DNA of 62,518 nucleotides, the filler included, from Globobulimina sp. (Eukaryota): the NCBI GenBank assembly GCA_003354225.1. It is 22 parts of 22 records of this genome, joined end to end, with 100 filler letters (N's around TTAATTAATTAA, not from the genome) between each part and the next. Parts side by side here need not be neighbours in the genome. Positions count along the whole stretch, not along the records: positions 22,778 to 25,524 come from PIVH01005091.1; 21 more parts are not named here. The stretch is one strand, 5' to 3'. The translations under genes were made by a program, and so were the position numbers. The notes under the pieces were generated by a model. It was not told the origin of the DNA and searched no databases. It saw only the letters and a list, made by a program, of their open reading frames with translations. Positions 19,931 to 27,165 of the stretch are shown here, one piece after another (position 1 is the stretch's first letter; the number at the start of each line of letters is the position of its first letter).

Positions 19931-22677
19931 TTTGTGACTAAAATCTGATCCAAATCCAAATAAACCAAGTGTACATTTCGTCACATATCGATCATTTTGA
20001 TCTTCTTCTTCTTCTGCTTCCTCATCAATGTCTGCTTTCTCATCATTTTCATACTTTGTTAATTGCTTCATTTCCGTTAATTCAATATATTGCTGCATTT
20101 TAGTCTCATTTATTTGTTGTTTGTCAGTGTATGCTGATTCATTCCCATCTCCATAAATATAGCATTCCTCTTCTTTAACATCCACACATTGTACCTTAGC
20201 TTCGTTTCTTTGCTGTTTGGTATGATAAATATTACAATGTATCGAATCGAAGATTGCTTTGTAATATCCATCAGAATGTTGTTGTTTTTTCAAATGTTCA
20301 TTATACTCCGCAATCTGTGCAGGTACTGCAGCAAAGGTGTCATTCTTTTTGTTTTTTTTGTTTCTAGACAGTATGTTACATTTTGATTTTATGCAATGAT
20401 CAATATTGCGAGTAAAATATGAATATGATTGGTAATTATTGCAATCAATGTGAGTTTCAAACACATGCCTCCAATTTGTAACAATTTCAGAGTATGATGT
20501 GTTATATAATTTGTTTTGTTGTAATACGACGTATTTATCACATTCGATTAAAAGTTGAAGATACAATGATTTGGTTGATCCAATCGATATATTTGGATTC
20601 ATATCAAATACCATTGATATTAGTCGTTCCTCTGATAGATGGCATATATCATTTACATTGAACTTTGTATTTTTACTAAATATGTCAGATAATAATTGTC
20701 TGTCTCGTTTGTTATAATCATTTGTATTTTTAATTGCGTTTGGAATAATTAGTGAAATAATGTCTTTCTCAGTTAATTTTAATAACATATCACCATAATT
20801 TATATAATTGCTTTGAGAATAAGCGGTGACAAAATGTAGTATCTCTTGTGCTGCTTTACATTGACTGATATCATTCGCATTGCCACATAAAATATCTTTT
20901 GCATTCTTATTAATATTATCATTACGCACTGCTTTATTCCTTAATGTATTGACAATTGATTTTTCTTTATTTATTCCACAAACTAAACATTGTCGCATCA
21001 ATTTCCCCGAAGGTTTTAAAAACTTATTAAACACTTTACAAATCTTATTGGTATAATTGCAATTATTACATGGCCATTCGCGTAAAAATAATCTGCTGAA
21101 AACCATTGCCCATATTTCATACAATCTGGATATCACATTGTAATTTAATATTTTATCTTTATTGAAATTACCCACTCTCTCAACCACTAAATAATAAAAT
21201 AAATTGGCAATCTTTTCAGTTTCCATATCAATCAAATGATTATGTACCAATTTAAGAGCCAATGTCGAATAATTTATGCTAAATTTTTCATTTAAAGTCA
21301 TTAAATTATATAAGTCCGTGGTGTCCATATTATATTTTAAATGCCTTTCTATTGCATTTGCTAAACATTTCACAATCTCTTCATTTTGTGGCACATGATA
21401 TTTTTTAATATTATTATAAATTTGAATGGCATCTTCCTCGTTTATTGCAGATGTTTCTTGCAATGTTTTTATAAATTTATCGTTATTCAAATTCTCAATA
21501 ATCCATAAACCATCAATCGAGTTTTTCTCCTCATCAACAAAGTTATGTTCTGCACTCTCAACGGGGACATTACAAATAAATGCAGCCAACAGATGAGAGT
21601 CCATATCAAATAATTGTGACTTTGGTAATATTAATATTTTATTACATACATGTTCCAACATTTTATTTTCTACACATTCACCAATAACATTATTTAAATA
21701 TATCTTAATATCTAACTGTTTTTTGCTTTCTTCCAATAACATTCCATCGATATTCTTCTCTTTGATAATTTGCATAATTTCCAAACAATGTGCAATATAT
21801 TTTGCATCGCTCAGCATCCAGCCACATATAATATTTTTAATCTGTCCATCTGACATATCACGTAATGCCGTTAATGTGTTCATAAAATTCCTTTTATAAT
21901 CACTTGCTTTCTGTTTCATGATTTGTTCAAATTTATCAATTTGTTGCTGATGAATGTCCTTCATTTTATATTGCCCGTTAATGTCAATGGTCGGGATTTT
22001 AATTGATTCCATATTATTACAATTATAAAATGTAGCAATACGTTTAGCAAATTTCACACTGTTTAAATGTTCATGAATATAAATCTCCATTTTTGTGGCA
22101 GTATCATCATCTTCCAATGAATTATTAATTGAGTCAACTGATATATTTACAATAATTTTATTCTGTTCAATGGCAACACCAACCACTCCAACTAAATATT
22201 GTTCTGTGTTTATAAATCGATTAATTTCTTCATCCAAAACTCGTTCAATGTTTTGCTGTTGATACATTTGGAGCGGATCAATTTGATTATCATCAAAATT
22301 AAAGCTAATTGTCATCATTTTATATTTTGCAGCCACACCATGCACATAAATATTTGGTAATAAATGTTTAGAATAACAAAATGCTGCCATTTGTTTGACA
22401 AACATTTTATCCTTTAATTGTTCATTAAAATAAAATTCCATTCTTCTCAATGACATTTTTCTCTGATCCTCCACTGATTTGTCATCATTCCATTCCACAC
22501 AGATATCTGCATTCAAATTATTTGTTTTCGTATTGATATCCAATACTTCAACGTTATATTTTTCTGCATCAACCACCAAATTAATTAATTCACTCAATTT
22601 TTGCTCATAATTTGTATTTTTTGATTTTTGAAAGATCTCAATTTGATGTTCTTCATCGAAAACAGCTTGCATAGTCA
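19931..22677 (-). CDS. Large hypothetical protein, partial at both ends, with an internal duplication and a RanBP2-like Zn ribbon
   Basis: Open across the whole contig. Contains WPCNNCNYTN...CLVCG and the motif CIKSKCNILSRN...FDSIHCNIYH. Duplicated blocks: MEFYFNEQLKDKMFVKQMAAF and MEIYIHEHLNSVKFAKRIATF. Confidence 0.75.
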
Positions 22678-23034
22678 NNNNNNNNNNNNNNNNNNNNNNN
22701 NNNNNNNNNNNNNNNNNNNNNTTAATTAATTAANNNNNNNNNNNNNNNNNNNNNNNNNNNNNNNNNNNNNNNNNNNNCCTCCATCATTGTGATGTGTATT
22801 GGTTACATGTGAATTCACCAAATATTGGAAATGGTCAGCATGGATGTTAGGTCCTGTTGGACGTTCTTGTGGTCGATTCCATTGATTCATTGCGATTTAT
22901 TGATTAATTTTAAATTTTAATGTAATTACACTAATGAGAATAAAGGACGGGATGATGGAAACAAAGGATACACAGAGTTTTTTTCTAAAACGTAATTTAA
23001 ATAACATTTCCTTTACATCTTCGGACTACAAAAA

Positions 23035-25524
23035 ATGGCAGCAGAAGCAAAAAAAAATAAACTGAAATGGAGTATTGATGTTTATAATCGATTGTTATGG
23101 GATGACACATTGGTTTTAGATAAATCCCTGATAGAAATAATCCATCATGTATGCAAATGCACCAATACCCTTCAATTAATTTACAAAACTGATTTATTCC
23201 AAATTTATGCAGGACAGATATGAAAAACTAAAATCTATAAAATTTACAAAGTGGATATCTATCGATGAAGGAGGGGATATCCCATTTCATAGAATTGCAC
23301 AGTTCAAATATAACAATCTTATTTTATGGGATAGAAAGCAAAGAATTGATAATCTCAACGCAAATTCAGGACGAACTACTTTGGATTTTCGTTTTATTCA
23401 ACAATCAATTTATCACAACACGGATAGCAACAAACAAACACAAAATAATATTATTAGTAATGATATAAACCGGTATCAAGATCCTATGCACATAGATACT
23501 TCAGAATATGTCGCCGATTCTCAGTTTCTAAGTTTATTGGAAATGGAACCAAAAAACGTGTCATCACTGTACAAGACATTAAACACAATGATAGATAATG
23601 CCTTTCTCAGTAAAAGACCAAATAACATTGAAAGATTAGCAAGAAATTTGAGCATTAAATATTTATCATATATTGATTCAATGAAGCCACACAAATATTA
23701 TTTATTTGGTTCAGCAAAAATAGGATTAGATTCACATAAATCCGACTTAGATATAAAAATTGAGCCATCCAAACACCACAAAATATCAACACGCGATGAC
23801 TGCCTTCAGTTATTAAACCAAATAAAATCTGAATTTTTGCAGCAACAATCACTACAATACAGTTTGCAGCAAAATATCAGCAATGCTCTGGACACAACTT
23901 TTATTAATATTACATTGGATGACTTTCAAAATGATGAAATTGCAGAGTTGCAAAGCAAAATCACTGCGGAAAATAACACGATCCATAGAATTATTGTTGA
24001 AAGCTCACGTATTTCGATCGGAGATGGTGTGATACCACGTTGTATGGTTGAATATATTGTGAAAGTCATAGCGTCTAAATCCATTCTCATAAAAAAGTTT
24101 AAAATATTGATGGATATTACGGTCAGTATTGATATAAGCGGCAATGAAGAAGTTAGAGATAAACATTTAGGAAATTGGGTGGATAAATTTTGTGTTTCCA
24201 ATGAAGATAAAAGGATTCATAAATTTTTATTTGCCGTGAAATTATGGGCACAACATTTTAAAGTCAATGTAAGCACTTCATCAACAATAAATGGCTATGG
24301 CTGGATCCATATTGCTTTGTTTTTATTGACTTCCAATTATAAACAAAAACAAATATATGAGAACGAGCATGTTAATGAAAGAAAAGATTATGAATCAATG
24401 TATTCAGATATTTGTATACCGCACGAGATAAGCTGTGGTAAATTATTTATTTCATTTATCTCAATGCTTCATTTATGGATATGTTTTGATGAAAAAACCG
24501 AAGAGAATCCAGCAAAGATTGTGCGCGATGGAATGAATGTGATCACAGGAGAATGGATTAACAATTTTAAACACTATGCTTTATTTGTATTGGATCCATT
24601 TTATCAAAGTGAGAATTTAGCAAACAACTTAACAAAATGTGTGCGAAATAGAAGAGGAATACCATTGCTAATTAAAGCTATTAAATCTAGCATCCAACAG
24701 CTACAGTTTGCTGCGCATGAATCTGTAAAATGTAATTACCATTCCATTGGGAAACATATTCAATTCTTTGATGATGCTGAAAAACGAACAATTATCGTTG
24801 ATGACAGTGATGAAACAAAAGAAGAAGAAGAGGAAGAGGAAGATATTGAGGATGGTTTTGTGAAATATTATTCATGGAAACAACTTTGTAATTTTCAATT
24901 AAATTTACCACAAAGAAAATGGATGCAACACAACAACTGTAATAAGAGGAAAACAAATGATTCAGATTCAGTTATTACAATTTGTGAATTTAACTGTTTA
25001 GCACAGGATCTTACCTCTGGAGAAAAGGCGCATTATCAATTTAAAACGGATGAAAAATATTTGCGATGGAACTACAGATCAAAGCGAATATTGTATGAAA
25101 TATTGCAGTATAAATGTGATATTATATGTCTTTGTGAAGTGGACGCGAAACACTTTGAGAATTTTTATTATCCGAACCTAACAAAATCGGTATTTAAATA
25201 TGACGGATTGTTTTTGAATAAGAATAAGCCGGATACTTATAAAGGAAATAAGAGATCGCGAGGTAGAGTGCCAAAAGACGGCGTGGCGATATTTTGGAAC
25301 AGTTTAAAGTTTGCATGCTATGACAAATATGAATGTGTTTTGGGGAAAGAAAATAAAAGTTACCATATTGCATTGGGCGTGAAATTAAAATATAAAATTG
25401 GCGATAAAGTATCTGCCGCGTTTGATGTTTGGTGCACACATTTAAAAGCGGGGAGAAATAATAAAGCAGAAAATTGGAGATTGGCACAGGTGAATTCTTT
25501 ATTATATTCTATGCGAAAGTATTC
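23035..25524 (+). CDS. MJ1316 domain + Cid1/PAP-type nucleotidyltransferase + nocturnin/CCR4-like EEP phosphatase fusion, 3'-partial
   Basis: Exon 23035-23148, intron 23149-23212, then exon 2. MJ1316: DVYNRLLWD...DRY...DIPFHRI...LWDRKQRID. NTase: LFGSAKIGLDSHKSDLDI, VKLWAQ, INGYGW, VLDPFYQSENLA. EEP: FNCLAQDL, LRWNYR, DIICLCEVD, DGVAIFW, THLKAG...RLAQ. Confidence 0.85.
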
Positions 25525-25864
25525 NNNNNNNNNNNNNNNNNNNNNNNNNNNNNNNNNNNNNNNNNNNNTTAATTAATTAANNNNNNNNNNNNNNNNNNNN
25601 NNNNNNNNNNNNNNNNNNNNNNNNTTGATTTCCCGCCGGGCTACATCGATTTTGTCGGCGATCTTCTGAAGCCTCGCCTGGTAAGGCGACCGTACGGAAG
25701 AAGGAAAATAGGTCGTATTGTTGACCAGTTCCATTGTCTGCTCGTAAAGCTTCAACTGCTGCTGTGCTTCAGCCGTTTTCTGTTCGGCAGCCAGGCGTCG
25801 CGTTTGGGAAGCAAAACCATCGGCAATCTCGGGAAACAATCCACCCAGATCGATCCCACTCTAA

Positions 25865-27165
<1,301 letters not shown>

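Follow-up and report, generated by a model that had tools for sequence, protein, structure and literature searches.

A 62.5 kb stretch of DNA (62,518 nucleotides, referred to here as the window) from the Globobulimina sp. assembly GCA_003354225.1 carries, at positions 23,035 to 25,524 on the plus strand, a gene whose product joins an MJ1316 domain, a nucleotidyltransferase (NTase) and an EEP domain. By its sequence, this protein is a rare and independent construction of a type of RNA-end repair fusion that is already known, put together from different parts. The best reading of its function, held with moderate confidence, is that it senses an RNA 3' end, removes a phosphate from that end and adds a tail to it; what it acts on, in which order it carries out the reactions and which nucleotide it adds are inferred.

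According to this reading, the gene is an expressed eukaryotic one with an intron, and it encodes MJ1316, a Cid1-family NTase and a Mg-dependent CCR4-family EEP as a single chain. The MJ1316 domain would dock the enzyme onto the 3' ends of RNA that has been cleaved by metal-independent RNases, and the EEP would strip the blocking terminal phosphate (2',3'-cyclic, 2'-phosphate or 3'-phosphate) to leave a 3'-hydroxyl. The NTase would then extend this end with A or U residues without a template, and the tail may either stabilize the fragment or mark it for decay. The reading is supported by the recurrence of the same three activities in proteins of the MJ1316-EEP-2H-PAP type, and by the conservation of all of the modules together within the family of the window protein.

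Gene structure and contiguity

The window is composed of 22 unrelated contigs, each of 2744-2748 bases and with G+C contents of 0.28-0.43, sorted by length and joined by linkers of the form N44-TTAATTAATTAA-N44. The MJ1316-NTase-EEP gene is alone on its contig (22778-25524). As the window consists of separate contigs joined by linkers, the open reading frames (ORFs) that flank the gene in the window are not its neighbors. The gene has the following features, in which P numbers denote related proteins and X numbers denote public sequencing runs.

23035-23148, plus strand: exon 1, 38 codons by translation, with the start codon and the N-terminal half of the MJ1316 domain
23149-23212, plus strand: intron of 64 nucleotides, GT..AG, with the joint from 23148 to 23213 seen in contigs of runs X4 and X6
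23213-25524, plus strand: exon 2, 770 codons, open up to the contig end with no stop reached
23213-23362, plus strand: C-terminal half of the MJ1316 domain (GGDIPFHRI, LWDRKQR), matching positions 31-75 of the 75 in Pfam PF04457 (E 2.4e-4)
23510-24772, plus strand: Cid1/GLD-2/TUT-type NTase, catalytic and central domain with a low-complexity insert, assigned from an AlphaFold2 model and Foldseek
23696-23761, plus strand: NTase motifs hG[GS] (YYLFGS) and DxD (SDLDIKI), conserved in P0003, P0004 and P0034
24104-24133, plus strand: strand with the presumed third catalytic Asp (LMDITV), MD[IV] in six of the six family rows that cover it
24800-24853, plus strand: acidic linker that connects the NTase with the EEP and is crossed by contigs of X1, X4 and X6
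24971-25524, plus strand: CCR4/nocturnin-type EEP (PF03372), N-terminal ~60% (FNCLAQ, CLCEVD, DGVAIFW, THLKAGR), with the remainder off the contig

The short motifs that a first-pass annotation had read from the sequence alone (IPFHRI, WDR, FGS...DLD, FNCLAQ, LCEVD and THLKA) are all present where it placed them. The ATG at 23035 is the first one after an in-frame stop just upstream, and the relative P0003 aligned to exon 2 as one tblastn piece over 23237-25525. The contig stops at 25524 before any stop codon is reached, and the gene is therefore incomplete at that point. Contigs of X1 and X8 extend 486 and 130 letters beyond 25524, which indicates that the gene goes on past it. The full protein is roughly 970 residues long, with about 160 residues absent from the contig.

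Splicing was examined by aligning the contigs of four public runs (X1, X4, X6 and X8), the kinds of which are recorded as '?' or 'RNA?', to the contig of the gene. A joint from 23148 to 23213, skipping the 64 nucleotides with their GT..AG ends, was found in two of the four runs, at a depth of 41 in X4 and 20 in X6. In X8, a loose end of 34 letters precedes 23213, and 30 of these resemble the end of exon 1 with few differences; a 2077-nucleotide X4 contig also begins at 23213, and its eight loose letters match the end of exon 1. The unspliced form was present in X1, where a contig starts at 23174 inside the intron, passes the 3' splice site and reaches 23799. The runs with evidence of the exon-exon join come from three studies. 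The joined form represents mRNA or else an allele that lacks the intron; the reading frame is real in both cases. The removal of the intron, predicted in the first-pass annotation, is thus borne out by the joints in X4 and X6 and by the exon 1 letters before 23213 in X8. Two further joints in X1 (23388 to 23481 and 23501 to 23954) were rejected as splicing: their depth is 2.3, the shorter side is 21 letters, they are absent from the other runs and they are probably assembly noise.

The junction between the MJ1316 domain and the NTase is spanned by single contigs of X1 (23174-23799), X4 (23213-25281, gap-free) and X6 (23213-23826), and that between the NTase and the EEP by single contigs of X1 (24591-25524), X4 (the same contig) and X6 (23951-25483). 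Because these contigs bridge the domain junctions, the gene is not a chimera; the NTase-EEP junction had been singled out in the annotation as the place where a chimera might show, and it is covered in all three of these runs.

An artefact, whether a chimera from mis-assembly, a pseudo-exon without splicing or a pseudogene in decay, is largely refuted as an explanation of the gene and is considered extremely improbable. The contig is merely 2.7 kb long and the gene incomplete, decayed copies do occur in the family (P0008 is without the third-Asp strand and P0033 is frameshifted), and the kinds of the runs that contain the joint are recorded just as '?' or 'RNA?'. These points are outweighed by the bridging of the domain junctions in contigs of three independent studies, the exon-exon evidence from X4, X6 and X8, the open frame of 770 codons, and the architecture and catalytic motifs shared by P0003, P0004 and P0006.

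Upstream of the gene, a divergently oriented ORF (22780-22890, minus strand) lies ~145 bases from the ATG and runs off the 5' end of the contig; it was without any Pfam match. An X4 contig spans 22778-22969 in this upstream stretch, and X4 depth falls to ~2 in the bin 22962-23053, which takes in the last part of the intergenic region and the opening bases of the gene.

The MJ1316 domain

With exon 2 alone, Pfam PF04457 scored 22.2 bits, under its cut-off of 26.3, and matched by the second half of the profile only; exon 1 alone gave no PF04457 match in the Pfam scan. A custom MJ1316 hidden Markov model (HMM) of 89 positions, built from 18 domains of unrelated proteins, scored the spliced product at 100.1 bits in a single stretch over 2-82, compared with 74.0 bits for exon 2 and 18.6 bits for exon 1. 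As the training proteins were found via exon 2, the exon 1 score is the only independent test among these values. The expectation that splicing would complete an N-terminal MJ1316 domain agrees with the gain from 74.0 to 100.1 bits.

The 106-residue relative P0007, which scored 50.9 bits on PF04457 against the same cut-off of 26.3, is colinear with exon 1 and exon 2 combined; its tblastn pieces end at 23148 and resume at 23222, and exon 1 is 67.5% identical to its residues 3-42. The motifs GGDIPxHR (23270-23296) and WDRxxR (23324-23344) are present and correspond to invariant or near-invariant columns in the MJ1316 alignment. The domain starts at about residue 7, and no obvious presequence was seen ahead of it. 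In P0009, the HMM match falls into two pieces with ~32 extra residues between them, at the profile position of the intron in the window gene; this insertion is probably a conserved intron position that was read through by the gene caller.

No solved structure matched the MJ1316 domain profile at E <= 1, and we know of no published assay of an MJ1316 domain. The domain is predicted to recognize RNA ends that carry a 2',3'-cyclic phosphate (Pfam title; PMC6514570).

The nucleotidyltransferase

The NTase was modeled with AlphaFold2 from exon 2 residues 86-520 and eight homologues (pLDDT 75.4, pTM 0.78), and the model has a two-lobed fold of catalytic and central domains. A Foldseek search with it against the PDB returned 138 matches at E <= 0.001. 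Among the matches listed, all are of the Cid1 family: GLD-2, TUT7, CutA, Cid1, mtPAP, URT1, TUT1 and the editosome TUTase MEAT1. GLD-2 matched at E 1e-9, and GLD-2, TUT7, CutA, Cid1 and mtPAP together span 1e-9 to 1e-7. The GS, DxD and third-Asp motifs lie on the expected strands, the presumed third Asp being on the strand formed by residues 206-219 of the model, and they are kept in all of the family members that cover them except the decayed P0008.

The likeness to the Cid1 family (GLD-2/TENT2, TUT7, CutA, Cid1, mtPAP and URT1) is therefore one of fold, with a target-normalized TM (template modeling) score of up to 0.65, and of the shared GS, DxD and third-Asp motifs. Sequence identity to the Cid1-family structures is just 12-16%, however, and ~120 residues, including the low-complexity insert, separate DxD from the third Asp in the window NTase. 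Unlike the Cid1-family members, it also falls under the Pfam cut-offs: MTPAP-like_central matched with E 2.9e-4 (21.4 bits, cut-off 27) and Polbeta with E 3e-4, and the Pfam scan of the window protein gave no PAP_assoc match. Because MTPAP-like_central is under its cut-off and PAP_assoc went undetected, the NTase is regarded as a sequence-divergent member of the Cid1 family. Its nearest relatives outside the family of the window protein, P0013 and P0026, have MTPAP-like_central plus PAP_assoc.

The fold and the catalytic motifs together uphold the earlier assignment of the domain as a Cid1/PAP-type enzyme. A signaling NTase of the OAS/cGAS type was also considered and was dropped, there being no such entry among the Foldseek matches listed.

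The EEP domain

The EEP barely exceeded the PF03372 cut-off (24.7 bits versus 24.5), because the contig holds only ~60% of the domain. In the window, FNCLAQ supplies the catalytic N, CLCEVD the E and THLKA the H, and the later motifs would lie beyond the contig end; the remaining motifs (GDLN/GDFN, DYI and SDH) were found in the orthologues P0003 and P0006.

Searched against PDB sequences, the window fragment had 11 matches at E <= 1, and 11 of 11 were CCR4-family proteins: Ccr4 (4.5e-8), nocturnin (6.8e-7), CNOT6 and CNOT6L (~1e-6), ANGEL2 (2.9e-5) and PDE12 (0.05). By bit score, this incomplete EEP alone placed yeast Ccr4 (35.6) slightly above nocturnin (31.7). P0003 alone gave nocturnin at 5.4e-16 (61.3 bits), then Ccr4 at 1.2e-5 (27.1 bits), and ANGEL2 was not among the matches listed. 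A profile of four family sequences matched nocturnin at 102.8 bits (1.3e-28), followed by Ccr4 at 70.8 (6.3e-19), PDE12 at 70.2 (9.8e-19), CNOT6L at 63.9 (8e-17) and ANGEL2 at 57.6 (6.1e-15). A model of the whole P0003 protein (pLDDT 63.3, pTM 0.51) is usable for its domain cores, its inter-domain geometry being unreliable; Foldseek placed nocturnin first with this model (1.2e-11, 30-32% identity), and CNOT6L, PDE12 and ANGEL2 were within two orders of magnitude.

These comparisons place the EEP in the CCR4 family, nearest to nocturnin, as a statement of likeness and not of orthology. The original description of a nocturnin-type EEP is accordingly sustained, with one caveat: the family profile and P0003 agree with it, and the fragment in the window slightly favors yeast Ccr4.

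The preference of the fragment for Ccr4 (4.5e-8) is the first of several points in favor of an alternative in which the EEP, as a 3'-to-5' exonuclease (a deadenylase or trimmer, like Ccr4, CNOT6L, PDE12 or trypanosome LCCR4), takes off damaged or pre-existing 3' nucleotides, the NTase re-adds nucleotides and MJ1316 does no more than target RNA ends. CNOT6L and PDE12 have Foldseek scores within a factor of ~10 of that of nocturnin, and a CCR4 homologue without leucine-rich repeats trims the CCA ends of tRNA in T. brucei (PMC7897491). With full-length sequence, on the other hand, nocturnin leads Ccr4 by 32 bits, and purified nocturnin has no deadenylase activity and takes the 2'-phosphate off NADP(H) (PMC6542800). 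Exonucleases do not, moreover, usually act on RNA ends that bear a cyclic phosphate. Such tail remodeling is considered unlikely.

Nocturnin (NOCT, Curled or plant CCR4C) is the best solved sequence match; where the P0003 model aligns with it, identity is 30-32%, and the MJ1316-NTase-EEP family has its N, E, THLKA, GDxN and SDH motifs at aligned positions. It differs in being a stand-alone protein that acts on NADP(H) (PMC6542800), whereas the window EEP is fused to two RNA-end modules. A second difference concerns an arginine. In NOCT, the adenine is held between R290 and R367 in the NADP(H) pocket (PMC6542800); the equivalent of R290 is shifted by one position in the window family, with AGR in the P0003 alignment where NOCT has AR.

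The closest EEP domains to that of P0003 are in the uncharacterized proteins P0039, P0040 and P0041, which are 47-49% identical to it over 98% of the domain. These proteins share the nocturnin-like sub-clade of the window gene's EEP but, unlike the window protein, have neither MJ1316 nor NTase and carry two N-terminal CCCH zinc fingers in their place. Because CCCH fingers bind RNA, their presence points to an RNA substrate for this EEP sub-clade.

A further alternative is that the EEP is a phosphatase of NADP(H), or of some other nucleotide that is cyclic or carries a 2'-phosphate, and not of RNA; MJ1316 would then hold a small ligand with a cyclic phosphate, and the NTase would have a regulatory role or produce a nucleotide signal. 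Both nocturnin (PMC6542800) and plant CCR4C (PMC12557515) have NADP(H) 2'-phosphatase activity, and THLKA is identical to that of nocturnin in the alignments. The CCCH fingers of the closest EEP relatives nevertheless suit RNA better, the adenine-stacking arginine (NOCT R290; PMC6542800) is one residue off, and the top structural matches of the NTase are all RNA-tailing enzymes, with none of the OAS/cGAS type among the matches listed. The three-module logic also recurs in the MJ1316-EEP-2H-PAP fusions, which are known here by their domain sets and automatic names. A cofactor enzyme of this kind is regarded as quite improbable.

Rarity and relationship to known fusions

The N-terminal 520 residues of the window protein were searched against 1.84 billion representative proteins at E <= 0.001. 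Only 30 proteins matched, 24 of them through the MJ1316 part alone and six through the NTase; the six comprise the family members P0004, P0005, P0006 and P0008 and the stand-alone Cid1-like proteins P0013 and P0026. A word-indexed search added P0003 (935 residues), which is 58% identical to the window protein at 99% coverage, with 60-76% identity inside domains and 43% in the second linker. P0004 is 40% identical. The NTase-EEP order and the catalytic motifs are common to P0003, P0004 and P0006. The predicted proteins P0003 and P0004 have their first residue within the MJ1316 domain, which is expected of a gene caller that is unable to splice.

Among JGI metagenome contigs, 255 pattern matches yielded no confirmed family member, and a profile search of longer proteins for MJ1316 architectures found three among 8000 scored candidates, which is too few to count. 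In the literature on MJ1316 (DUF504), no title or listing was found that describes the MJ1316-NTase-EEP order; Burroughs and Aravind 2016, reportedly the paper that defined MJ1316 fusions, may list it. Within the searches made, the domain order with a nocturnin-type EEP appears to be new, as had been supposed, with four proteins sharing the NTase among the 30 matches.

Decayed-looking copies were noted for two relatives. P0008 has DxE for DxD and a degenerate form of the STINGYGW motif and is missing the third-Asp strand, and P0033 loses the frame after the MJ1316 HxI motif. Other MJ1316 architectures were also seen: MJ1316 with NUDIX in P0011 (by Pfam scan) and in P0035 (by precomputed Pfam labels), and MJ1316 with an AKAP7-type 2H, an AAA_33 kinase and a HAD 'Swiss Army Knife' domain in P0037.

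All nine of the long (>= 700 residues) proteins that matched through MJ1316 alone carry MJ1316 and Exo_endo_phos, eight of them with 2H and eight with PAP_central; seven of the nine have all four domains, in the order MJ1316-EEP-2H-PAP. The first-pass annotation was thus right that MJ1316/EEP/PAP fusions exist elsewhere, but they have this other order and non-orthologous EEP and PAP parts. Fusions of the MJ1316-EEP-2H-PAP type are reportedly described as RNA-repair proteins. In the protein Atlas, the nearest neighbors of P0003 are clusters of such fusions, which come from Actinomycetota, Ascomycota and Rotifera and bear the name 'poly(A) polymerase family protein'.

The known fusions resemble the window protein in having an N-terminal MJ1316, an EEP and an RNA NTase of the polymerase-beta fold in one chain, and the two would work on a common principle, in which the RNA end is recognized, healed and tailed. 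They differ in order (MJ1316-EEP-2H-PAP versus MJ1316-NTase-EEP) and in the 2H domain (LigT/2_5_RNA_ligase2), for which there was no match in the window protein at E <= 1 or in P0003, P0004 and P0006 at E <= 0.01. The parts differ as well. In P0019, a known fusion, the EEP is nearest to TDP2, with no CCR4-family match at E <= 0.01, and the NTase is nearest to the canonical PAP gamma, whereas the window protein is nearest to nocturnin and Cid1/GLD-2. BLAST between the EEP and NTase domains of the two sets gave nothing better than E 0.002.

A maximum-likelihood tree of EEP domains divided the two sets with support of 100/99. It comprises 18 selected rows, carries a long-branch warning from the tool and includes no named nocturnin sequences; near-duplicates (P0034 and P0047), fragments (P0038 and P0045), P0049 and the MJ1316-EEP proteins P0010, P0015, P0017, P0022, P0024, P0025 and P0036 were omitted. 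As the EEP and NTase parts are non-orthologous, the order differs and 2H is absent, the window protein is an independent assembly of like modules.

Weighing the proposed mechanism

The closest functional parallel to the proposed mechanism is in metazoan mitochondria, where the CCR4-family EEP ANGEL2 clears 3' phosphates and thereby allows polyadenylation by MTPAP, which is of the Cid1 family (PMC9525292). Both the pair of enzyme classes and their order of action match what is proposed here. ANGEL2 and MTPAP are two separate proteins without MJ1316, however, whereas the modules of the window protein are in one chain, and the EEP of the window family is nearer to nocturnin (1.3e-28) than to ANGEL2 (6.1e-15). 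For ANGEL1 and ANGEL2, 2',3'-cyclic phosphatase activity is also on record (cited in PMC7897491; PDB titles).

Several points weigh against a sense, heal and tail function. Nocturnin, the nearest characterized EEP, acts on NADP(H) and not on RNA (PMC6542800), and in NOCT knock-out mice the mitochondrial 3'-phosphate status was unchanged (PMC9525292). ANGEL2, the proven cyclic phosphatase, is by the family profile the most distant of the five CCR4-family kinds matched (nocturnin, Ccr4, PDE12, CNOT6/6L and ANGEL2). The window EEP is incomplete, and its predicted full active site is visible in orthologues and not in the window. The NTase is under every Pfam cut-off and has no PAP_assoc match. Cyclic-phosphate binding by MJ1316 is itself a prediction from the literature (Pfam title; PMC6514570), and the RNA-end substrate and the activities rest on inference from sequence and analogy.

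A more specific version of the proposal can be put forward tentatively: that the nocturnin-clade EEP acts on the 2'-phosphate or 2',3'-cyclic phosphate of RNA 3' ends, in cis with a Cid1-type tailer and an MJ1316 reader.

Other contigs of the window

A tblastn search with P0003 that took in the remaining 21 contigs gave no match other than the MJ1316-NTase-EEP gene. One of these contigs contains, at 25874-26143 on the plus strand, an exon with the start of a CFIm25/NUDT21-type NUDIX_2 domain (PF13869, 78.4 bits; G+C 0.425). On another, an open frame of 915 codons (19931-22675, minus strand) fills the whole contig and matched no Pfam family above its cut-off.

Significance

The protein can be regarded as a Rosetta-stone fusion, joining modules that are otherwise known to cooperate only as separate proteins (ANGEL2 then MTPAP) or within MJ1316-EEP-2H-PAP proteins. 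Because there would then be two independent assemblies of reader, phosphoesterase and tailer, the case for heal-then-tail as a selected pathway for phosphate-bearing RNA ends is strengthened. The protein also offers a compact handle for testing MJ1316, a domain whose profile is matched by no solved structure at E <= 1.

The occurrence of a nocturnin-like domain in an RNA-directed context bears on the unsettled issue of whether RNA is ever a substrate of nocturnin-type enzymes. If the nocturnin-clade EEP does act on RNA ends, the window protein would be a second invention of the MJ1316-EEP-2H-PAP machine, reached by convergence and doing without 2H, and the fusion would argue that the nocturnin branch has, or once had, an RNA-end phosphatase activity besides the dephosphorylation of NADP(H).

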